Below the pieces are notes generated by a model. It was not told the origin of the DNA, did no database searches, and was given only the letters and a program-made list of their open reading frames with translations. This document shows positions 1,056 to 48,961 of a stretch of DNA of 56,024 nt, piece by piece. The DNA comes from Patescibacteria group bacterium. Lineage in GTDB: Bacteria; Patescibacteriota; Minisyncoccia; Phycocordibacterales; SBAW01. The translations under genes and the position numbers were made by a program. The stretch is from assembly GCA_028864875.1 (NCBI GenBank), contig JAGWLV010000002.1, positions 1 through 56,024 of the forward strand, written 5' to 3'. Each line of letters starts with the position of its first letter. The first letter of the stretch is position 1.

Positions 1056-1349
1056 TCACACTCTATAAAAAAGAAAATGCCCGCCCCGTGTAACAGGGGC
1101 GGGCGGGAATGCGGCGAGTGCCGGTGAGCTCTGTTCCTCGTCTTCGACGGGTGAGTGGCCGCACCAACTGCACTTCAGAAACTCGTGCGTGTTGTTGCGG
1201 ATGAGCTTAAGCGCATGCTGGCCGCACCCCGGACAGGCGTGCGGTTCGAAGCCGGAGGCTTCGGGGTTGTTTTTGATGCGCTCAAGAATAGCCGGGTCTT
1301 CCTCGCGAAAGATGCGTTGAAGCTCCCCGTAATCAGGTGCGATGGGCAT
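1056..1349 (-). CDS. Zinc-ribbon protein, function unknown
   Basis: 97 aa with CPGC...CSWC (two CxxC pairs). Preceded by a GGCTGAA leader module and a GGGAG SD. Confidence 0.55.
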   Translation of the reverse strand: MPIAPDYGELQRIFREEDPAILERIKNNPEASGFEPHACPGCGQHALKLIRNNTHEFLKCSWCGHSPVEDEEQSSPALAAFPPAPVTRGGHFLFYRV

Positions 1350-1365
1350 GCCGTTGCTCCCAATT

Positions 1366-1384
1366 TTCAGCCGATAGAACTCTA
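1366..1384 (-). promoter_or_regulatory. Promoter/5'-leader module: TAGAGT-6nt-GGCTGAA
   Basis: Minus-strand reading is TAGAGTtctatcGGCTGAAaattgggagcaacggcATG. It overlaps the nusA stop codon. Confidence 0.5.
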
Positions 1385-2608
1385 CGCTTCTTTTTGCTCT
1401 TCGGCAACAGGTGCGTCAGGATTCCCGGAGGGTGCCGCCGCGCTTGCTTCAGCGGGAGCGGCACCCTCTCCGGCGGGGGCGCCGAGGGATTGGATGTCGA
1501 TGCGCCAGCCGGTCAACTTGGCTGCCAAACGGACGTTTTGTCCGCCGCGGCCGATGGCGAGCGACTGTTGGTCGGGGGCGACTTTTACCGTGGCGGCGTG
1601 CTCGTCGTCGTTTAATTCAACCGACAACACGCGCGCGGGGGAGAGTGCCTCTTCTATAAATGCTTTGGGGTCCTCGCTCCACTCGACGATGTCTATCTTT
1701 TCGCCGCCAAGCTCGCTTGTGACGGTCGAGACGCGCACGCCGCGCTGGCCGACGAGTGAGCCGACCGGGTCGACGTGGGAGTCGGCGCTTGCAACCGCGA
1801 CTTTGGAGCGGCTCCCGGCCTCGCGCGCGATTGCTTTAAAGAGTACGGTACCGCTTTGTGCCTCGGGTGCCTCCATTTCAAACAACTTCTTCAAAAAGTC
1901 CGGGTGCGCGCGCGAGAGGCGCAGGTACACGCCGCGCGGAGACTCCTCTACTTGATAGAGCAGTGCGCGGATGCGCTCGCCCTGGCGGTAGCGCTCGCCG
2001 GGGATTTGCTCTTCGTAGGGCAAGATGCCGGTCGCGCGGCCCAAGTCGACGTACAAGTTGCCGCGCTCCATGCGCTGCACGGTGCCGCCGACGATTTCGC
2101 CGGCGCGCGCGCCGAACTCGGCCACGACGGAGACCTTTTCGGCCTCGCGGATTTTTTGGATGATGACCTGCTTGGCGGTTTGGGCGGCGATGCGTCCGTA
2201 GTCATCTTTTCTTTCGAGCGGGAAGACGAGCTCGTCGCCCACTTTTGCGTCGCGTTTGATGAGCCGCGCATCGGCGAGTGTCATGTGTTGCTCGGGATTG
2301 TAGCGGGGGAGCACCTCAACCGGGTTGCCCTCTGCGTCAAACTGGGGCTCCGCCGGAGCTTCGTCCTCCTCGTCTTCCGGAACAAAGCGCACCGTCGACT
2401 CGTCGACGACGGTTTTGACCTGGGAAAATTCGGTCGAGCCTGAGTTGAGGTCGATATGGGCTTTGATGACCTGGCCCTTTTTTGCGTACTCCTTTTTGTA
2501 CGCGGTCGCGAGCGCCATCTCGATTGCCTCGATGACCTTTTCGCGCGGGATGCCGCGCTCTTCTTGGAGCTCGCCGAGCACTGAGTTGATTACTTTTAGA
2601 TCAAACAT
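1382..2608 (-). CDS. nusA: Transcription termination/antitermination factor NusA
   Basis: 408 aa. N-terminal MFDLKVINSVLGELQEERGIPREKVIEAIEMAL, then S1 and KH regions (GxxG: AIGRGGQNVRLA). Confidence 0.95.
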   Translation of the reverse strand: MFDLKVINSVLGELQEERGIPREKVIEAIEMALATAYKKEYAKKGQVIKAHIDLNSGSTEFSQVKTVVDESTVRFVPEDEEDEAPAEPQFDAEGNPVEVLPRYNPEQHMTLADARLIKRDAKVGDELVFPLERKDDYGRIAAQTAKQVIIQKIREAEKVSVVAEFGARAGEIVGGTVQRMERGNLYVDLGRATGILPYEEQIPGERYRQGERIRALLYQVEESPRGVYLRLSRAHPDFLKKLFEMEAPEAQSGTVLFKAIAREAGSRSKVAVASADSHVDPVGSLVGQRGVRVSTVTSELGGEKIDIVEWSEDPKAFIEEALSPARVLSVELNDDEHAATVKVAPDQQSLAIGRGGQNVRLAAKLTGWRIDIQSLGAPAGEGAAPAEASAAAPSGNPDAPVAEEQKEA

Positions 2609-2684
2609 ATCTTTTCTTTAATTTCTTAAAAGGAGAACCGCCCTCTCGGGGCGGTTTCCAGATAGTGCGAGTATATTCCTCTTA

Positions 2685-2690
2685 TATACT
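2685..2690 (+). promoter_or_regulatory. -10 box TATACT, 8 nt before ATG 2699 (leaderless start)
   Basis: Sequence is cttaTATACTtaagtcaaATG. Confidence 0.5.
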
Positions 2691-2698
2691 TAAGTCAA

Positions 2699-4357
2699 AT
2701 GCAAGAGAAGTCATCGGTGCAAGACGAACTGTTGGCGGGGATGCTCATCGCAAGCGGCGCACTCTCCCGCCGCGCGCTACAAGAAGCGCTCGAAGAGCGC
2801 TCGGACACACCGCTTTCAACACTATTGGTAGAGCGCGGCTTGCTGTCGGAGGACGAAGTGCGCCGCGCACAGGCGCAGGCACTCGGTGTGCCGTTTGTGA
2901 CGCTCGAGAGCATTGACCCCGAAGCGCTCTCTCTCGTCCCCGAGCCGCTGTGCCGTTCGCTCAATTGTCTTGCATATGCGGCGGGGGATGTCGTCGAGGT
3001 CGCGGTCCTGTCGCTCGGCGTCCTCCCGGAGCTCGAGCCGCTGCGCGGGCAGGCGTCCTTCGGCGGCAGGCGCATTGCGGCGCGACTCACCACCAAAGAG
3101 GCGCTGCGCCGCGGACTCCTGCAGTATCAGCGTCAGCTGCGCGAGCGCTTTGGCGCGGCGATGGGGAGCGGGGACGGCGAAGTGTTGCTGCGCAACCTCG
3201 TCGAGCACGCGCGCCTCAGCGCTGCGAGCGCGATAGAACTCACGCTCGGAGCACGCGCGCAGGTGCGCTACCGCACGCATGGAAGTCTCCACGACGCGCT
3301 CGAACTCTCCGAGCGCGCCGGGCGCGCGCTTGGTGCCGTGCTGCGTGTGGGCACTGTGACTGTGGAGCTTGGCCACGGCGAGTCGGCGACACTGCGGTGT
3401 GTGCGCGCGCCCGGCGCCAACCGCTGGACGCTCACGATACTGCCCCGCGGGCGCGGCTATGCTCTTGAGGACATCGGGTTCCATGGTACCTCTCTCGAGC
3501 GCGTGCACGCGATACTCGCCGCGCGCACAGGGCTCGTGCTCATCGCTGGGGAAGAGGGCGGCGGCCGCTCCACCCTCCTCTATACGCTGCTCCACGCGCT
3601 CAATGCCCAAGGTGCATCCATCATCACCGTAGAATCGCCGGTCGGCTCGCCACTCCAGTTTGCAACACAGATTGCCGCGGGCGAAGGCAACCCGCTTTCG
3701 GTCGCCGCGGCGGTGCGCGCCGCGGCGCGCATGGAGAGCGATGTGCTCGCCGTCGACGCGATTGAGGACCGCGACACGCTCGCGGTGGCGCTCGGCGCCG
3801 CGGCGCGCGGCACGTTTGTCCTTGCAACCGTCGCCGCGCGCGGAAGTGCCAACGCCATAGACCTTGTGCGCCGCCTCGGCGCCTCGGACAAAGAGCTCGC
3901 CGCCCTTGTGAAAGGAGTCATTGCAACGGCGGTGCTCCCCAAGCTGTGCACAAAAAAATTTATGGACATGCGCCGCGGAGCGCGCGGCGAACTCAATGTA
4001 TTTGAAGCGGCGGGAGCAAACTTTGGGCGCGTGCTGAGCGCCTTAAAAGAAGAAGAGGTCGCCGCGCAACAGCTCCAGTGGAAGGACGTAACCTTCGGCA
4101 CCCCGGCGGGGTGCAGCGAGTGTAGCCACGGCTACAAGGGCACGCTCGGCGTACACGAGGTGCTCGCCCCCTCGCTCATCGGCGCGGATTTGTTGCGCCG
4201 CGGCGCGGGCGGGGCGGAGGTTGTCGAGCAATCACGCACCGAAGGCATGCTCACGCTTGTAGAAGACGGGCTCTTTAAAGCCGCCGCGGGGCAAACAAGC
4301 CTCGAAGCTCTCAAATTTGTCAGAAATGATATTTCTGACGCCTCATTGACACAGTAG
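2699..4357 (+). CDS. PilB/GspE-family paralogue with degenerate ATPase motifs (probable pseudo-ATPase) and MshEN-like N-terminus
   Basis: 552 aa. N-terminal T2SSE_N-like repeats (ELLAGMLIASGALSRRALQEALEE; LSTLLVERGLLSEDEVRRAQAQ). Walker A is GEEGGGRST versus GPTGSGKST in the pilB at 52485. Asp box is ESPVG versus EDPVE. Walker B is VLAVDAIED versus IIMVGEIRD. His box is GTFVLATVAAR versus GHLVLSTIHTN. A C-terminal CSECSHGYKG is retained. Confidence 0.8.
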   Translation: MQEKSSVQDELLAGMLIASGALSRRALQEALEERSDTPLSTLLVERGLLSEDEVRRAQAQALGVPFVTLESIDPEALSLVPEPLCRSLNCLAYAAGDVVEVAVLSLGVLPELEPLRGQASFGGRRIAARLTTKEALRRGLLQYQRQLRERFGAAMGSGDGEVLLRNLVEHARLSAASAIELTLGARAQVRYRTHGSLHDALELSERAGRALGAVLRVGTVTVELGHGESATLRCVRAPGANRWTLTILPRGRGYALEDIGFHGTSLERVHAILAARTGLVLIAGEEGGGRSTLLYTLLHALNAQGASIITVESPVGSPLQFATQIAAGEGNPLSVAAAVRAAARMESDVLAVDAIEDRDTLAVALGAAARGTFVLATVAARGSANAIDLVRRLGASDKELAALVKGVIATAVLPKLCTKKFMDMRRGARGELNVFEAAGANFGRVLSALKEEEVAAQQLQWKDVTFGTPAGCSECSHGYKGTLGVHEVLAPSLIGADLLRRGAGGAEVVEQSRTEGMLTLVEDGLFKAAAGQTSLEALKFVRNDISDASLTQ

Positions 4358-4683: not shown

Positions 4684-4917
4684 ATGTGGCGCGTCAGGCT
4701 CATCGTGATGGCGATCCTTATAGTCCTGGCCGTGTGCCTCTTTGTTCCTCCAGTGGTTGGTTTTGTCGGGGGGTTTCAAAGACGCGGGCTCGGGCTTGGG
4801 TTCACTGCCGTCCTCAACTGGGGGTGTGAAGTCGGTTCCTCCGGCTACACCCACTTCACCGAAGCAATCTTGCTTGTCGCGCTAATCATCGTCATCGATA
4901 GAATATGGCCGCGCTGA
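4684..4917 (+). CDS. Small membrane protein
   Basis: MWRVRLIVMAILIVLAVCLFVPPVV...ILLVALIIVIDRIW. An AAGGAG SD sits at 4672..4677. Confidence 0.6.
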   Translation: MWRVRLIVMAILIVLAVCLFVPPVVGFVGGFQRRGLGLGFTAVLNWGCEVGSSGYTHFTEAILLVALIIVIDRIWPR

Positions 4918-4933
4918 TAAGCTGGCTTCAAGA

Positions 4934-4964
4934 CCTCCGGGGTTCGCCCCGGGGGTTTTTGTTT
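4934..4964 (+). terminator. Intrinsic terminator
   Basis: Stem CCTCCGGGG/CCCCGGGGG with a TTCG loop, followed by a T-run. Confidence 0.75.
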
Positions 4965-5002
4965 TACCCCCGTTTAGCCGGAGCAGGTATACTTCTGTAT
5001 GT

Positions 5003-5761
5003 ATGGCCAAAAAGCGCATCGTCATTGCCAACTGGAAGATGTACATCGCTTCGCCGAAGGCGGCGCTCGGGTTCGCCCGCGCGCTGCGCCGCCGCACGCG
5101 GCTCTTCGGCGGCATAGATATTGTGCTCGCGCCCCAGACCCCGCTCATCGGGGCGCTCTCCGGCACGCTCAAGGGCTCGACCATCAAAGTGGCGGCCCAA
5201 CACGTCTCTGAATTTGAAGACGGCGCCCACACCGGCGAGGTTGCCGCCGCCGCTCTGAAGGCCGCGGGCGCGCAGTGGGTTATTGTCGGGCACTCCGAGC
5301 GCCGCGCGCGCGGCGAAAAGGAGGCGTCTATCCACCAGCAGTTGGTAAACGCCGCCCACGCGGGGCTCGTGCCCGTGCTGTGCGTCGGCGAACGCCACCG
5401 CAGCGAGGACGGCTCACACTTCACAGTGATTGAAAAGCAGCTGCTGAGCGCCGTAAAGGGTGCGCAATCGATGCTCGGCAAAATTGTCATCGCATACGAA
5501 CCGGTGTGGGCGATAGGCAAGACTGCGGAGCACGCGATGAAGCCGGATGATCTCGAAGAGATGGTTATTTTTATCCGCAAAACCCTCGCCGAAGCGCTCT
5601 CGCGCAAAGAAGCGCTCACTCTGCCGGTCCTCTACGGCGGCTCGGTCGAGCCCCAGAACGCTGCGGCACTCATACGCACCGGCATTTCGGGCTTTCTTGT
5701 CGGACACGCGAGCGTAGAGCTCAATTCGTTCATCGAAATTCTTACCGCATGCAAAAGATAA
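5003..5761 (+). CDS. tpiA: Triosephosphate isomerase
   Basis: 252 aa with IVIANWKMY, VIVGHSERR, AYEPVWAIGTG-like (AYEPVWAIGK) and YGGSV. A TATACT -10 at 4988..4993 implies a leader of only 2-3 nt. Confidence 0.95.
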   Translation: MAKKRIVIANWKMYIASPKAALGFARALRRRTRLFGGIDIVLAPQTPLIGALSGTLKGSTIKVAAQHVSEFEDGAHTGEVAAAALKAAGAQWVIVGHSERRARGEKEASIHQQLVNAAHAGLVPVLCVGERHRSEDGSHFTVIEKQLLSAVKGAQSMLGKIVIAYEPVWAIGKTAEHAMKPDDLEEMVIFIRKTLAEALSRKEALTLPVLYGGSVEPQNAAALIRTGISGFLVGHASVELNSFIEILTACKR

Positions 5762-6828
5762 GCTCCGTCCAAGATGCTGATGTCGCAGACAAGCGCGTTG
5801 TCGTGCGCGTCGACTACAACGTGCCGCTTAAAGAGGGCCGCGTGCTCGACGACACGCGCATCGCGCTCTCGCTCCCTACGCTCAAACTCCTCAAAGAGAA
5901 GGGCGCCTCAAAACTAATTCTCCTCACTCACGTCGGCCGGCCCACAGGCACCGAAGGCGCGCTGCGTGTCGCCCCCATCGCTGCGCGGCTGCGCGAGATG
6001 CTTGGCGACCCGGGCATCGAGTTGCGCGAGAATCTGCGTTTTGATCCGCGGGAGGAGGAGGGGAGTGAGGACTTCGCCAAAGAACTCGCGCTCCTCGGCG
6101 ACGTGTATGTCAACGAGGCGTTCTCCGTCTCGCACCGCCCGCACACATCGGTTATATTTTTGCCGAAATTGCTGCCGCACTACGCCGGTCTGCGTTTTAT
6201 TGAAGAGATAGAAAAGCTTAGTGCTGCGCTCACACCGCCGCCAAAAAGCCTTGCGCTTGTCGGGGGAGCGAAGTTTGAAACAAAAGAGGCGCTGCTCGAA
6301 AAACTCCTCGGCCTCTACGACAAAGTATTCCTCGGCGGCGCGCTCGCCGACGACATCCTCAAGGCCCGCGGGATGCCTTTTGGTGGCTCGCTTGTCTCTC
6401 AAGTGCCGGTGCCCACGGTACTTGCGGGCAACGAGAAGCTTATTGCGCCCGGCGATGCCGCGGTCGTGGCCGAAGGCGTGACCCGCGGGCGCACCACACC
6501 GGTCAACGATGTCCGCGCGCACGAGCGTATTGTCGACATAGGCCCCACAACCGCCGCGGCGTGGGCCGCGGAGCTCGCTCAGGCGCCGTTTGTAGTGTGG
6601 AACGGGCCGATGGGAATTTACGAGCAGGGCTTTAGGGAGGGGACCGATACGCTCGCCAAAGCGCTCGCAGCATCGAGCGCCCGCGCGCTCATCGGCGGGG
6701 GCGACACAATCGCCGCAATCAAACAATTTTCCTTCGACCCCAAGCGCGTCTACCTTAGCAGCGGCGGCGGCGCGATGCTGCAATTTCTCTCCGATGGCAC
6801 GCTCCCCGGCATCGAGGCGTTGAAATAA
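5749..6828 (+). CDS. pgk: Phosphoglycerate kinase
   Basis: 359 aa with RVDYNVPL, LLTHVGRP, NEAFSVSHR, WNGPMGIYE and GGGDT. Overlaps the tpiA end by 13 nt. Confidence 0.93.
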   Translation: MQKISSVQDADVADKRVVVRVDYNVPLKEGRVLDDTRIALSLPTLKLLKEKGASKLILLTHVGRPTGTEGALRVAPIAARLREMLGDPGIELRENLRFDPREEEGSEDFAKELALLGDVYVNEAFSVSHRPHTSVIFLPKLLPHYAGLRFIEEIEKLSAALTPPPKSLALVGGAKFETKEALLEKLLGLYDKVFLGGALADDILKARGMPFGGSLVSQVPVPTVLAGNEKLIAPGDAAVVAEGVTRGRTTPVNDVRAHERIVDIGPTTAAAWAAELAQAPFVVWNGPMGIYEQGFREGTDTLAKALAASSARALIGGGDTIAAIKQFSFDPKRVYLSSGGGAMLQFLSDGTLPGIEALK

Positions 6829-6839
6829 TATTCAAAAAA

Positions 6840-6862
6840 TGCGATAGTGGCGGCGGCTGCAA
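6840..6862 (+). promoter_or_regulatory. Promoter/5'-leader module (variant): TGcGATAGT-6nt-GGCTGCAA
   Basis: Sequence is aaTGcGATAGTggcggcGGCTGCAAtaatctatagggtgtgcccATG. Confidence 0.4.
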
Positions 6863-6881
6863 TAATCTATAGGGTGTGCCC

Positions 6882-6998
6882 ATGTCGATAGATTCTGACA
6901 GCAAGGCTACAACCGGCACCATCGCCGGCATCGCTTACCTCGTCGTCTATAGTGTAATTGGCGTTTGGGCGCTGGGACGCTTGTTCGGCGCCTGGTAA
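6882..6998 (+). CDS. 38-aa membrane smORF (below ORF-track cutoff)
   Basis: MSIDSDSKATTGTIAGIAYLVVYSVIGVWALGRLFGAW. It has its own leader module upstream and a strong terminator downstream. Confidence 0.45.
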   Translation: MSIDSDSKATTGTIAGIAYLVVYSVIGVWALGRLFGAW

Positions 6999-7011
6999 GG
7001 CACAAAGAATT

Positions 7012-7042
7012 AAAACACCACCCCGCCAGGGGTGGTGTTTTT
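7012..7042. terminator. Bidirectional intrinsic terminator
   Basis: AAA-ACACCACCCC-gcca-GGGGTGGTGT-TTTT, between the smORF (+) and the HIT gene (-). Confidence 0.8.
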
Positions 7043-7044
7043 AA

Positions 7045-7407
7045 TCACTGTAGCGCGGCGCGCAATTTTTCTGCGTTTTTTTCAAATTCCATCAGCTGCG
7101 CGGAGTCTTCGGTCGAAGGGTACACCCAAATGTGTGCGTGGGCGACTTCGTCGCCAATAATGCGTGAGAGTATCCACTCGGTGCCGAACGCTTTTCGCTG
7201 TGCGAGCGCAATTGTGCGCGCAATTTCAAAATACCCGCCCACATCGGGCACGTCCCACACCCAACGCGTGTGGGCTTTTGGTATCACTTGCGTGTGGCCG
7301 GGGGCCTTGGGGTGTATGTCGAGGAAGGCGAGGTACGTGTCGTCCTCATACACCTTATGCGCGGGGATTTCGCCGCGCACTATTTTGCAAAAAATACAGT
7401 TGGGCAT
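7045..7407 (-). CDS. HIT-family (histidine triad) nucleotide hydrolase
   Basis: 120 aa with [13 protein letters not shown] and the HxHxHxx motif (HAHIWVYP). Confidence 0.9.
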
Positions 7408-24925: not shown

Positions 24926-25462
24926 ATGGAACTCGTACAAGCAAAACAAAAAAAGACATTTGAATCGCTCAAAAAAGATTTGGGTTGGGACAATCCCATG
25001 CAAGCGCCCCGCGTTGAAAAGGTCGTCGTCTCGGTCGGCGTGGGCCGCCTCGGCAAAGAGAAGGGCAAGCTCGAACTTGTGGCCGACCGCTTGGCAAAAA
25101 TAACCGGCCAAAAGCCGGCGGTGCGCGGCGCCAAGAAGTCTATCGCGACCTTTAAGACCCGCATCGGCGACACGCTCGGCTACCAGGTGACGCTTCGCGG
25201 TGTGCGTGCGACGGACTTCCTCAACCGCTTGATAAATATCGCGCTCCCGCGCACCAAAGACTTTAAAGGCATCTCGACCGCGGCTATAGACGACATGGGC
25301 AACTACACGCTCGGCATCCGCGAGCACACCGTCTTCCCCGAAACGGCCGACGAGGACATCCGCGATGTCTTTGGTCTTGCAGTCACCGTCGTGACGACCG
25401 CAAGGGACAAAAAGACCGCCAAGGCCTATCTCGAGCACCTCGGCTTCCCCTTCAAAAAATAA
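24926..25462 (+). CDS. rplE: 50S ribosomal protein L5
   Basis: 178 aa; NPMQAPRVEKVVVSVGVG...NYTLGIREHTVFPE. Confidence 0.96.
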   Translation: MELVQAKQKKTFESLKKDLGWDNPMQAPRVEKVVVSVGVGRLGKEKGKLELVADRLAKITGQKPAVRGAKKSIATFKTRIGDTLGYQVTLRGVRATDFLNRLINIALPRTKDFKGISTAAIDDMGNYTLGIREHTVFPETADEDIRDVFGLAVTVVTTARDKKTAKAYLEHLGFPFKK

Positions 25463-25471
25463 TTTTAAAAA

Positions 25472-25514
25472 GCAAAACCTCGCCGCCTCGGATTTGAGGG
25501 GCGGGGTTTTTTGT
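25472..25514. terminator. Bidirectional intrinsic terminator (rplE on +, cassette gene B on -)
   Basis: Long hairpin CCTCGCC.CCTC/GAGGGGCGGGG flanked by CAAAA and TTTTTT. Confidence 0.75.
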
Positions 25515-25524
25515 TTGAGGCGGC

Positions 25525-25887
25525 TTATGCCGCGAGCACAGTATCGACCACTTTGAGCAGCACCGGTGTGGGGAGCGTGCGGCCCAGGTACTCGTCGACG
25601 AACGGTGCGATTTCAACCGCCCGGATGCGCCGGCTAAAGCGGTTTATTGTCTCGTCGGTCTCCAAAAACGAGCGCTGCTGGGCGGCGTCGAGCCGCGCCA
25701 GAAGCTTTGGGTCGGAGGCCACCTTTCGAGGCGGGTGGAGTGCCTTGAATTCCTGCGCGAGCCGGATGGCCCCCGCGAGTTTTTTGAGCGACTCTTCAGG
25801 CCGCAGGCCTGCAGCCTCAATCTCCGCGAGCGCTTTCGAAAAGAGCGCGCGGTTGGACTCCACAAGTGTTTGATCAAGCGGCGTCAC
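25525..25887 (-). CDS. Hypothetical helical protein (cassette gene B, 120 aa)
   Basis: GTG 25887 has a GAGGAGG SD 7 nt upstream and overlaps the stop of gene A. Only the C-terminal 120 aa of the 198-aa track ORF looks protein-like (TPLDQTLVESNRALFSKALAEIEAAG...). Confidence 0.55.
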   Translation of the reverse strand: MTPLDQTLVESNRALFSKALAEIEAAGLRPEESLKKLAGAIRLAQEFKALHPPRKVASDPKLLARLDAAQQRSFLETDETINRFSRRIRAVEIAPFVDEYLGRTLPTPVLLKVVDTVLAA

Positions 25888-26152
25888 GAAGCACCTCCTC
25901 CTCGCCGGTTGTCGAAATCCGCACGTGTTTCGTGCCGATCTTGAACACCGCCGAGAGCCATTTGAAGTCCTCGCACGTCCGGACCGTGTTCCGCACAACA
26001 TCCGGACACTCCGGGTGGTGTTTGAGGATGTCGCGGGCGTGTTCGTCGACGTGTTTGGTGTCGTCGGCCTTGTCGTGGGTCGAGACAAACGTGAGAGCGT
26101 CGAGCAGTGCCTCGTAGGCATTGCTTATCTGCTCCTTGAAGTGCGTATCCAT
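25874..26152 (-). CDS. Hypothetical protein (cassette gene A, 92 aa)
   Basis: MDTHFKEQISNAYEALLDAL...EHARDILKHHPECPD.... It has a GGGAGG SD and a GGCTGCAA leader variant upstream. Confidence 0.55.
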   Translation of the reverse strand: MDTHFKEQISNAYEALLDALTFVSTHDKADDTKHVDEHARDILKHHPECPDVVRNTVRTCEDFKWLSAVFKIGTKHVRISTTGEEEVLRDAA

Positions 26153-26170
26153 TGAGCCTCCCTCAGAGAA

Positions 26171-26190
26171 TTGCAGCCGTGCGTAATCTA
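26171..26190 (-). promoter_or_regulatory. Promoter/5'-leader module (variant): TAGATT-6nt-GGCTGCAA
   Basis: Minus-strand reading is TAGATTacgcacGGCTGCAAttctctgaGGGAGGctcaATG. Confidence 0.4.
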
Positions 26191-26239
26191 ACCCATAAAT
26201 CTTTGTTAGTCAAATTAGTTGCACGTGCGAGAGTCCTTG

Positions 26240-26280
26240 TGCTATATTCTCCTCTAGCCCGCGAGGGCTCCTTATTTTTC
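26240..26280 (+). promoter_or_regulatory. rpsN promoter (TGcTATATT) with a terminator-like hairpin at the predicted transcript start
   Basis: TATATT at 26243..26248. Seven nt later comes AGCCC-gcga-GGGCT (26256..26269), then CCTTATTTTT. Confidence 0.45.
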
Positions 26281-26326
26281 TGCCAGGTCCCCTACATAGG
26301 TGGGATACCAGCAGAATCACAAGCCA

Positions 26327-26512
26327 ATGGCTAAAAAGTCTACAGTCGCACGCTCAAACCGCCCGCCGAAATTCAAGTCGCGGGTCGTTCGCCGTTGCTT
26401 CCGTTGCGGCCGCAAGCGCGCGTTCATGCGCGACTTCGGCCTGTGCCGCGCGTGCTTTCGCGAGGCAGCCAACGAAGGGCTCATCCCCGGCGTGCGCAAA
26501 TCGTCCTGGTAA
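26327..26512 (+). CDS. rpsN: 30S ribosomal protein S14, zinc-binding type Z
   Basis: 61 aa; [46 protein letters not shown] (CxxC...CxxC). Confidence 0.95.
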
Positions 26513-26518
26513 TCACGT

Positions 26519-26899
26519 ATGATGACTGACCCAATCTCCGATATGCTCGTTCGTCTGCAAAACGCCGCCCGCGTGGGCAAGGGTGCGTTGTCCATGCCGT
26601 ACTCGCGCATCAAACACTCCTCGCTCTCGGTCCTCAAGAAGGAGGGCTATGTCAAAGACGTATCGACCACTCAAAACGGCGGGCGCAAAATACTTGAAAT
26701 TTCCATCGACCCCTCCGCCATCCGCGGCATCAAACGCATCTCCAAAGGCTCGCGCCGCGTATACCTCGGCGCGCGCGACCTGCGCCCCGTGATGCGCGGC
26801 CACGGCCTCCTTGTACTCACCACGCCGCTTGGCGTGATGACCGGCCTCGAGGCGCGCCGCAGGGGTGTCGGCGGCGAGCCTCTGTTTGAAATCTGGTAA
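26519..26899 (+). CDS. rpsH: 30S ribosomal protein S8
   Basis: 126 aa; TDPISDMLVRLQNA...GGEPLFEIW. Confidence 0.96.
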   Translation: MMTDPISDMLVRLQNAARVGKGALSMPYSRIKHSSLSVLKKEGYVKDVSTTQNGGRKILEISIDPSAIRGIKRISKGSRRVYLGARDLRPVMRGHGLLVLTTPLGVMTGLEARRRGVGGEPLFEIW

Positions 26900-27795: not shown

Positions 27796-28419
27796 ATGGC
27801 TGACGACACACAAAAAAAAGTTGAAGGTGCTGCTCCCGAAGCCGTTGCTCCGGCGGCCCCTGCCGAGGCGCCCCGCCAGAGCGGAGAGCGCGGCCTGCCC
27901 GACGGCAAGGCGGGCCGCGGACGCGGCGCTCGCGGCGGACGCGGCGAGCGCCGCGGCGCGCGCTCGGGCTCGCGCCCCCCGCGCGCCCGCAGCGAGTTTG
28001 ACACCCGCATGATCAACATCCGCCGCGTGGCACGCGTCGTTGCGGGCGGACGGCGTTTCTCCTTCTCGGTTGCTATAATCATCGGCAACAAGAAGGGCAA
28101 AGTGGGTGTGGGCCTCGGCAAGGCGGGGGACACGACGCTCGCGATAGACAAGGCGACGCGCGACGCAAAAAAACACATGATTGAAGTGGCGCTCACCAAG
28201 GACAGCTCCATCGCGCACGATGTCGCGGCCAAGTACGCCGCAAGCCGCATCGTGCTGCGCCCCAGCCCGGGTCGCGGGCTCGTCGCGGGCTCCTCGGTCA
28301 AGCCGGTCTTGGAGCTCGCGGGCATCAACAACACCGTCGCCAAGGTGCGCTCGGGCTCCAAAAACGGTCTCAATAACGCCCGCGCGACCATCGAGGCACT
28401 CAAATCGCTCAAAGCCTAA
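27796..28419 (+). CDS. rpsE: 30S ribosomal protein S5 with a ~70-aa Ala/Pro and Arg/Gly-rich N-terminal extension
   Basis: The core INIRRVARVVAGGRRFSFSV...GKAGDTTLAIDKA is S5. It is preceded by ...GKAGRGRGARGGRGERRGARSGSRPPRAR. Confidence 0.94.
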   Translation: MADDTQKKVEGAAPEAVAPAAPAEAPRQSGERGLPDGKAGRGRGARGGRGERRGARSGSRPPRARSEFDTRMINIRRVARVVAGGRRFSFSVAIIIGNKKGKVGVGLGKAGDTTLAIDKATRDAKKHMIEVALTKDSSIAHDVAAKYAASRIVLRPSPGRGLVAGSSVKPVLELAGINNTVAKVRSGSKNGLNNARATIEALKSLKA

Positions 28420-39610: not shown

Positions 39611-39644
39611 CAAAAGCGCCCTTTGTGCGCTTTTGTTTTCTTTG

Positions 39645-40017
39645 TGGAGATGGGGGGAATCGAACCCCCGTGCAACAGTTGATGCAGTGCGCGTCTACAA
39701 GACGTAGTGAGCTTTCAGTTCTCGACGTGGTGCATCAAAAGCGCACAAAAGCGCATCACGTTAGAGCTCTGGTCTTAGGCGGGGTAGTGAGCAGCTACTC
39801 CGCAGCATCCCGGTGGTATAACACCCGGCTCTTCCTCACAGGAGTTGGAAGAGGGGTGACGACTTACGCCTTAGCGTAGGCGAAGTCGAAATCATTCGCC
39901 GCGAAAAACGGCGATGCAACTGATTTGGCAGTTATAGGTTGGAGCAGTTTTAAGAAGTGCTCCAGTTCTGCCTCGCAGCGCACAAGCATGCATCTGCTGT
40001 CTAGGCCTGTCATCCCC
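39645..40017 (-). ncRNA. ssrA: tmRNA (SsrA)
   Basis: The 5' GGGGAUGACAGG pairs with the 3' ...GGUUCGAUUCCCCCCAUCUCCA, with G3:U in the acceptor stem and discriminator A. An internal frame ends ...GCGGCGAAUGAUUUCGACUUCGCCUACGCUAAGGCGUAA (..AANDFDFAYAKA*). It lies immediately downstream of smpB. CCA is not encoded. Confidence 0.9.
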
Positions 40018-44515: not shown

Positions 44516-44587
44516 GCGCTCGTAGCTCAATGGTAGAGCAGTCGACTTATACTCGACCGGTTGTAGGTTCGAGTCCTACCGGGCGCA
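44516..44587 (+). tRNA. tRNA with anticodon UAU (Ile, AUA-decoding)
   Basis: Hand-folded cloverleaf. Acceptor GCGCUCG/CGGGCGC, D arm GCUC-AAUGGUA-GAGC, anticodon arm GUCGA-CUUAUAC-UCGAC, variable region CGGUU, T arm GUAGG-UUCGAGU-CCUAC, discriminator A. No CCA is encoded. Confidence 0.8.
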
Positions 44588-48874: not shown

Positions 48875-48961
48875 GGAGGCGTGGCAGAGCGGTCGAATGC
48901 AGCACACTGCTAATGTGTTGTCCGGGAAACTGGACCGGAGGTTCGAATCCTCCCGCCTCCG
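48875..48961 (+). tRNA. tRNA-Ser (anticodon GCU)
   Basis: Acceptor GGAGGCG/CGCCUCC, 3-bp D stem, anticodon loop CUGCUAA, long variable arm, T arm GGAGG-UUCGAAU-CCUCC, discriminator G. Confidence 0.88.

Follow-up and report, generated by a model that had tools for sequence, protein, structure and literature searches.

The question raised by this locus is how two reverse-strand genes came to lie inside a bacterial ribosomal protein cluster, and what they do there. The window analyzed here is the whole 56,024-nucleotide (nt) stretch at the start of contig JAGWLV010000002.1 (assembly GCA_028864875.1, Patescibacteria group bacterium). Its plus strand carries a complete ribosomal protein cluster, comprising rpsS, rplV, rpsC, rplP, rpmC, rpsQ, rplN, rplX, rplE, rpsZ, rpsH, rplF, rplR, rpsE, rplO and secY. 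Between the end of rplE (25462) and the start of rpsZ (26327) lies a spacer of 864-865 nt that holds two minus-strand open reading frames (ORFs), genes A and B. The original prediction had reported a split of about 860 nt carrying these two genes, and its coordinates hold; the S14 gene beyond the split, named rpsN there, is rpsZ, whose 61-amino-acid (aa) product is a zinc-type S14 with a CxxC-x12-CxxC pattern. In the canonical spc operon, rplE and rpsN or rpsZ are adjacent, co-transcribed and tens of bases apart. This layout is absent from the window, because the 864-nt spacer contains a terminator, two reverse-strand genes and a promoter (Table 1). Our analysis indicates that A and B probably form a real, expressed-looking, lineage-specific two-gene operon, which is the local cargo of an insertion hotspot found throughout a clade of the Candidate Phyla Radiation (CPR).

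Evidence for the hotspot comes from the same junction in relatives. The L5 protein of the window is 72-80% identical to those of Candidatus Adlerbacteria and other Paceibacteria-type CPR genomes. We placed nine cluster genes by tblastn in 160 fetched loci, 106 of them from CPR bacteria, and measured every junction. The rplE-rpsZ spacer, present in 71 CPR loci, had a median length of 552 nt and a maximum of 2971 nt, and exceeded 200 nt in 53 loci and 500 nt in 37. In contrast, the seven other junctions from rpsQ to rpsE in the same CPR loci (53-96 loci each) had medians of -15 to 84 nt and a maximum of 325 nt, and in 52 non-CPR loci the rplE-rpsZ spacer had a median of 18 nt and a maximum of 172 nt; none of these exceeded 500 nt. 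These comparisons establish that the split is a property of the lineage and is specific to the rplE-rpsZ junction. Furthermore, 11 additional CPR loci (L003, L015, L021, L026, L031, L092, L106, L110, L112, L118 and L122) have no rpsZ within 3 kb of rplE, and the cluster is fully broken at the rplE junction in some lineages. In these 11 loci neither rpsZ nor rpsH was seen within 3-4 kb, the space being taken by, for example, rplJ/rplL-like genes, glycosyltransferases or a 1054-aa surface-type protein.

The junction thus combines conserved, syntenic flanks with content that differs between genomes, at this one position, as expected of a variable hotspot. The split had at first been regarded as unusual; it is the rule in this CPR clade, and most genomes carry differing cargo at the same junction. 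The insertion is real but typical of its lineage, and less exceptional than it seemed on first reading. In the synteny comparison that had been proposed as a check, a split spacer recurs in relatives, and A- or B-like genes occur in none of the 160 loci. We found no terminal direct or inverted repeats, integrase or tRNA marking the insertion. Horizontal-transfer hotspots between conserved core genes are known from bacterial pangenome studies, and they likewise show conserved syntenic flanks around variable content rich in toxin-antitoxin pairs, retroelements, transposases and orphans. However, the flanks described here are adjacent genes of the ribosomal supercluster, contiguous in the other bacteria sampled, and the site lacks an integrase, a tRNA and attachment repeats.

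The cargo of the relatives differs almost everywhere. Only six similarities between loci turned up in a set of 83 candidate cargo ORFs. Pfam scans, which covered 20 of the 83, recognized toxin-antitoxin components, a reverse transcriptase, a transposase and several other functions (Table 1), and many further cargo ORFs gave no match. Toxin-antitoxin pairs occupy the junction in at least six relatives, two of which (L036 and L045) carry the pair on the minus strand with the 3' end of the toxin gene adjoining rplE, the layout seen in A/B. The reverse-transcriptase cassettes of L004 and L033 look like candidate diversity-generating retroelements, of which we take the combination of RVT_1 and bAvd to be a hallmark; in both, a target-like protein ends in a sequence of the GGYPALRFAS type. 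In the closest relative, L001 (80% L5 identity), rplE is followed by a two-way terminator and by a divergent TTGACA-N17-TATTAA promoter (3550-3600) with a TATGGGT block, and these signals enclose only an unrelated 55-aa minus-strand ORF (3346-3513). Comparison of L001 with the window suggests turnover of cargo within a conserved frame.

Since chance long ORFs are common in a genome of 59% G+C content (dozens appear in the ORF list of the window), the coding signal of the spacer had to be tested. G+C fractions at codon positions 1/2/3 were 0.61/0.37/0.78 in A and 0.71/0.43/0.73 in B, the same pattern as in rplE, rpsH, rplF and secY; non-coding patterns were seen in the mirror ORFs and in the stretch that extends B's frame at its 5' end. 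With a three-periodic Markov model trained on 31 long genes of the window, A scored +0.050 and B +0.066 nats/nt (training mean, 0.083; rpsH, 0.069), and the 5' extension of B, which would yield a 198-aa version, scored -0.31. The remaining spacer ORFs scored negatively except for plus-strand ORF 25925..26155, which was close to zero (+0.003 nats/nt); its frame was weakly positive in sliding windows at about 26000-26060, always under that of A. Near 25880 the best-scoring frame passes from that of B to that of A. When the spacer was shuffled 1000 times with its dinucleotide content preserved, no shuffle contained a positively scoring ORF of 80 aa or more. No other spacer reading frame, including the 198-aa extension of B, had a Pfam match. 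We take A and B as real protein-coding genes with native-like composition.

The starts of both genes can be read directly. Gene A has GGGAGG 4 nt before its ATG, and gene B has GGAGGAGG 6 nt upstream of its GTG. The two genes share a 14-nt overlap, GTGACGCCGCTTGA, so that the placement of B's GTG within the last codons of A, behind a GAGGAGG Shine-Dalgarno box, is as originally described. A public gene call (P0001) begins B eight codons later, at the next GTG, giving 112 aa; we retained the 120-aa version because no Shine-Dalgarno site precedes that later start. Translation of B is probably coupled to that of A on one mRNA, which would keep the two proteins at a fixed ratio, and the two probably act together.

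What, then, was present at the junction before A and B? Resemblance to relatives at the DNA level is confined, within the spacer, to positions 26189-26325 (87% to L009 and 76% to L007), a block that corresponds to the rpsZ promoter and leader. The promoter assigned to the S14 gene near 26240 is indeed there, with TTGCAC at 26219-26224, TATATT at 26243-26248 after an 18-nt spacing, and a TG at 26240-26241. An rpsZ promoter is kept in ten relatives. In some it reads TTGACT-N17-TATATT; in the others the -35 box is weak (TTGCAy) and the -10 box carries a TGn extension, a trade-off that would be expected if the promoter works. L007 represents an empty site: only 8 nt separate its rplE stop codon from TTTGACT-N-CTATATT, the same leader comes next, and cargo is entirely lacking. 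No terminator was seen after rplE in L007 other than the GC hairpin of the leader. Because the same promoter and leader stand at the empty site and the promoter is kept in ten relatives, the rpsZ promoter is ancestral and older than the A/B insertion. The original view that the S14 gene needs its own promoter as a result of the insertion is therefore not supported. The inserted segment spans roughly 25463-26218 and includes its own terminator and promoter. In this lineage, the rplE-rpsZ junction is the border of two transcription units, as the ancestral promoter and the conserved leader indicate.

The leader holds a GC hairpin (26256-26269) and U-run (together 26256-26279), an element that is invariant, lies 5-8 nt after the -10 box and occupies the same position in ten relatives. 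With its run of 5-7 U residues it resembles an intrinsic terminator, yet its predicted place is the extreme 5' end of the rpsZ mRNA; it might block transcription arriving from rplE or from cargo, or stabilize that end. An irregular helix follows (26278-26316), with an internal loop formed by 26285-26289 and 26304-26309. The leader is also found in L001 (3614-3690), L007 (4571-4643), L011 (5017-5093) and other loci. In an alignment of 11 sequences, 93% of cells in the helix could pair and 6 of 16 pairs showed double changes. The covariation score was 0.274, compared with 0.130 in shuffles, none of which (0/500) reached it, and at most 0.152 in slid controls. A covariance model gave one match per locus, always just upstream of rpsZ and only in the Adlerbacteria-like group. 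Neither the spacer nor the rpsZ leader corresponds to an Rfam family.

The internal loop closely resembles the binding site of ribosomal protein S8. This site is a helix interrupted by seven conserved loop nucleotides (PMC4176348), which form the triples A595-(A596-U644) and (G597-C643)-U641; A642 is invariant, residue 641 is variable, and the 596-644 pair is C-G in Thermus (PMC4176348). The invariant loop of the leader reads 5'-A-G-G-U...A-N-A-C-C-3', and Escherichia coli 16S helix 21 reads A595 A596 G597 U598...A640 U641 A642 C643 U644. Across the 11 sequences, alignment positions A32, G33-C56, G34-C55, U35-A52, N53 and A54 are invariant or covarying and match E. coli 595-598/640-644, so that every described feature of the S8 site has a counterpart in the leader. 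A strict S8-core descriptor matched upstream of rpsZ in the window and in 11 of the 71 CPR loci, in none of the 52 loci from other bacteria, and in 0.4% of background windows; the distant Paceibacteria loci L012, L023 and L040 carry an E. coli-like AAGU/AUACU version. The rpsZ leader therefore has, in sequence, what defines an S8 element on mRNA: a helix with the seven-nucleotide helix 21 loop, on an mRNA that encodes S8. We propose it as a candidate S8 autoregulatory operator preceding rpsZ-rpsH; the S8 gene of the window, rpsH, lies at 26519-26899, and the residue equivalent to A642 is at 26307.

The S8 operator of E. coli lies across the rplE start, and translation of the genes from rpsN through rplO is coupled to that of rplE (PMC3616713). 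That operator is likewise an mRNA helix with the 16S helix 21 loop in the operon encoding S8 (PMC3616713, PMC4176348), and it shares with the leader the A595-(596-644) triple, G597-C643, U598-A640, N641 and the invariant A642. In contrast to the E. coli arrangement, the element predicted here lies in an untranslated leader before rpsZ, after a separate promoter, and its 596-644 pair is G-C; rplE falls outside the leader's unit and is no longer coupled to rpsZ. Thus, S8 control would act at a new leader before rpsZ-rpsH, uncoupling rplE from rpsZ and leaving a harmless gap between the two units.

These observations suggest how the junction may have become a hotspot. In Paceibacteria-type CPR bacteria, the ribosomal cluster would be cut into two transcription units at rplE|rpsZ, with rplE closing one and rpsZ opening the next from a conserved promoter and a leader that mimics the S8 site, probably under S8 feedback. 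Since nothing at this border would need read-through, foreign or novel genes could lodge there harmlessly, and the conserved flanking genes would offer homology for exchange. The segment inserted in this genome would have brought its own terminator and promoter along with the genes for an acidic 92-aa protein and a coupled, basic 120-aa protein.

Signals for expression of the A-B unit are present on both sides. Upstream of A lies a minus-strand sigma-70-like site, TTGACT-17-TAGATT (26213..26185); L001, the nearest relative, shares the -35 box and a TATGGGT block that precedes the -10 box. Downstream of B, region 25463-25524 folds at -26.5 kcal/mol on the plus strand and -21.0 kcal/mol on the minus strand (z of -3.6 and -3.9; 0/200 shuffles as good), and T/A runs on both sides of the hairpin place a U-run after the stem on each strand. 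Given this stability and the U-runs on both strands, the bidirectional terminator originally attributed to rplE and B together is a reasonable assignment. A and B are presumably expressed. The unit had been described as transcribed head-on into the ribosomal operon; its actual course is to converge on the 3' end of rplE across the two-way terminator and to diverge from rpsZ. Likewise, the "GGCTGCAA leader variant" attributed to the cassette is not a motif, as two matches occur in the window and 3.0 are expected by chance.

Protein searches assigned neither gene to a family. A is acidic (isoelectric point 5.5, net charge -6) with seven His and two Cys residues, and B is basic (isoelectric point 9.15). 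No match to either was found in Pfam, NCBIfam or PADLOC at E-values up to 1. In PHROGs, searched at E up to 10, A had no match and B had one borderline match, to phrog_21898 of unknown function (E 0.0097). A word-indexed search of 5.8 billion clustered proteins with A and B returned the window's own proteins only, and an exhaustive HMMER search of 1.84 billion representatives with B returned B itself and P0003. We rejected P0003 as a relative of B: it is a tandem-repeat translation, 2934 aa long, in which a 225-aa unit recurs about 13 times almost unchanged, and its E-value of 8e-17 is inflated by summed weak matches to B residues 26-66, which illustrates how repeat proteins can inflate whole-sequence E-values. 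The PDB sequence search yielded sub-threshold matches only, to eS21 (with B, E 0.11) and glucose-6-phosphate isomerase (E 0.26). By tblastn, A and B gave nothing in 50,697 phage records and nothing below E 0.28 in the 160 related loci, and exact-protein look-ups of A, rpsZ and rplE led to no other contig. A and B are orphans, in agreement with the initial remark that neither protein has a recognizable motif.

Several of these results weigh against a functional A/B operon of the kind proposed here. No relative of A or B exists in any database searched, and the exhaustive profile search covered B only, A having been covered by the word-indexed method. The single-sequence AlphaFold models are helical but poor, with a predicted local distance difference test score (pLDDT) of 55 for B and 54 for A; the model of A has four helices, with about 70 helical N-terminal residues and a disordered-looking C-terminal stretch of 22 residues. 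Foldseek, run on these low-confidence models as had been suggested, found nothing below E=2 for A and B in PDB or for B in a viral library. No profile match indicated a toxin or antitoxin domain in either protein or a DNA-binding domain (RHH, HTH, AbrB or Phd/YefM) in A. The claim that the cassette has its own promoter holds in so far as the promoter-like site exists, but this single consensus hit is weak alone, with one found and 0.5 expected. Finally, no convincing operator-like palindrome was found at the A-B promoter (26153-26215).

Regarding function, the single most likely assignment, although a tentative one, is that the two proteins form a small toxin-antitoxin or addiction-type complex in which B is the effector and A neutralizes it. 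This assignment is suggested by the gene layout, by the acidic-upstream, basic-downstream charge distribution and by the toxin-antitoxin pairs at the same site in relatives; it stays tentative because A/B show no homology, no fold and no operator. Type II toxin-antitoxin systems consist of two small, adjacent, co-directional and usually overlapping genes, as do A and B. The resemblance to operons such as DinJ-YafQ, HicAB, MazEF and ParDE extends to the acidic upstream and basic downstream products, an overlap of a few bases, a promoter of their own and a variable accessory location, and the MazF pair of L045 also overlaps by 14 nt, given the MazF start that we chose. However, unlike these systems, A and B match no toxin or antitoxin family or fold (Pfam, NCBIfam, PADLOC, PHROGs and PDB, with Foldseek on a low-confidence model), no DNA-binding domain is recognizable in A, and no operator repeats were seen.

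It is quite possible that A/B is an accessory operon of another function: its products could be regulators derived from a phage or plasmid, a pair serving anti-defense or immunity, or a small host-interaction factor and a chaperone for it. In relatives, toxin-antitoxin genes account for the smaller part of the hotspot cargo, which also includes proteases, membrane proteins, a transposase, reverse-transcriptase cassettes and many orphans; the missing toxin and antitoxin signatures and the borderline phrog_21898 match of B fit such a role. Nevertheless, no positive evidence favors any specific alternative of this kind, neither tblastn nor Foldseek gave a phage match, and no integrase or mobile-element gene adjoins the pair.

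We consider it unlikely that A and B lack a selected function, whether as young ORFs that arose de novo or as decaying remnants of earlier cargo, with possible transcription from a divergent promoter also found in the closest relative. Both proteins are singletons in every database searched, L001 has the divergent promoter and two-way terminator around nothing but its unrelated 55-aa ORF, and the frequency of chance ORFs at this base composition would allow for such an origin. However, native three-periodic codon statistics in both frames, unmatched by any shuffle, argue against it, as do the good Shine-Dalgarno site at each start and the frame hand-over exactly at the 14-nt overlap; no other frame is clearly positive or family-matched, plus-strand ORF 25925..26155 being near zero.

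An even less probable idea, which we give hardly any weight, is that A is a minimal HEPN-type RNase with B as its partner. A does contain R40-x4-H45 within EHARDILKHH, which the original prediction had itself warned against over-reading, but Pfam, NCBIfam and PADLOC gave no HEPN, DUF86 or related match at E-values up to 1, and Rx4H is expected by chance in a protein rich in His and Arg. HEPN RNases are recognized by a profile match and by a four-helix bundle whose last helix starts with Rx4-6H, whereas A has about 70 structured residues and carries the motif in the second predicted helix of its low-confidence model. Least probable of all is a role as lineage-specific ribosomal proteins or assembly factors kept for co-regulation, to which the location and the sub-threshold eS21 match of B (PDB sequences, E 0.11) might point, since A/B lie on the opposite strand behind a terminator, that match is not significant, and neither gene is found in any relative, even where L5 is 80% or S14 98% identical.

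Returning to the toxin-antitoxin reading, a bolder version of it would make the rplE|rpsZ border a dedicated cargo bay for trying new genes, insulated by a terminator and an S8-controlled promoter, and A/B the only member known so far of a toxin-antitoxin or addiction family that is new and either arose at this border or was captured by it. We regard this version as doubtful.

Table 1. Features of the rplE-rpsZ region in the window and cargo recognized at the same junction in relatives.
Locus	Feature	Position	Strand	Basis
Window	rplE (L5), last gene of the upstream ribosomal transcription unit	24926..25462	+	ORF and translation; 72-80% identity to Adlerbacteria-like L5
Window	Two-way intrinsic terminator, common to rplE (+) and gene B (-)	25483..25504	both	Terminator scan, folding
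Window	Gene B, 120 aa, GTG start, basic, predicted all-helical, orphan	25525..25887	-	Coding statistics, searches, AlphaFold
Window	A/B junction: 14-nt overlap and Shine-Dalgarno site for B, within the 3' end of A	25874..25902	-	Direct reading
Window	Gene A, 92 aa, ATG start, acidic, His-rich, orphan	25874..26152	-	Coding statistics, searches, AlphaFold
Window	Promoter-like site of the A-B unit, TTGACT-17-TAGATT, back to back with the rpsZ promoter	26185..26213	-	Consensus scan
Window	rpsZ promoter, TTGCAC-N18-(TG)cTATATT	26219..26248	+	Kept in 10 relatives; present at the L007 empty site
Window	Conserved rpsZ 5' leader: GC hairpin and U-run, then irregular helix	26254..26326	+	Alignment, covariation, covariance model
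Window	rpsZ (zinc-type S14), first gene of the downstream unit rpsZ-rpsH-rplF-rplR-rpsE-rplO-secY	26327..26512	+	ORF
L006	YafQ toxin and upstream partner			Pfam scan
L013, L056	HicA and HicB/UPF0150-type partner			Pfam scan
L036	YafQ/ParE-like toxin and partner			Pfam scan
L045	PemK/MazF toxin and partner			Pfam scan
L119	ParD antitoxin and RelE-like neighbor			Pfam scan
L004	Reverse transcriptase cassette	1120-3657		RVT_1 match
L033	Reverse transcriptase cassette	4726-7200		65% identical to the L004 copy; bAvd match in the neighboring ORF
L097	IS200-like Y1 transposase			Pfam scan
L040	DUF559 endonuclease			Pfam scan
L002	MerR regulator			Pfam scan
L043	ClpP-like SDH-type serine protease			Pfam scan
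L008	Aspartyl-protease match, weak, sub-threshold			Pfam scan

Three further observations were made in the window. No rpmD (L30) lies between the end of rpsE (28419) and the start of rplO (28428), an absence that we take to be typical of CPR bacteria. The 207-aa S5 ORF begins with about 65-70 low-complexity residues (window positions 27796-28000), rich in Ala, Pro, Arg and Gly and RGG-like, before the conserved S5 core; this could be a genuine N-terminal extension or an over-long start call. Only three Rfam matches at gathering level occur in the window, namely a transfer-messenger RNA at 39642-40017 on the minus strand (98 bits) and plus-strand tRNA genes at 44516-44587 and 48875-48961.

In summary, variable cassettes in core-gene hotspots, often toxin-antitoxin pairs, are an already known kind of element. 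What is new here is the singleton nature of the two proteins, the clade-wide site inside the ribosomal supercluster and the apparent relocation of the S8 operator; our literature search, whose coverage was incomplete, found no paper describing these and nothing relevant on genes inserted into the spc operon or into ribosomal operons of CPR bacteria. A/B alone would be one more set of CPR orphans, and the context is of greater interest. The junction is a defined, easily located place for harvesting novel small gene cassettes from CPR metagenomes, and it calls for caution wherever a binning or phylogenomic pipeline takes the ribosomal protein genes to form one contiguous block. The rplE-rpsN/Z junction, among the most conserved in bacteria, has been broken in an entire class of ultra-small bacteria, and the break is now a hypervariable accessory site. 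The leader sequences suggest that the operator for S8 feedback has shifted away from rplE, into a new leader that precedes rpsZ, and the junction offers a testable example of how the regulation of a ribosomal operon may be rewired.

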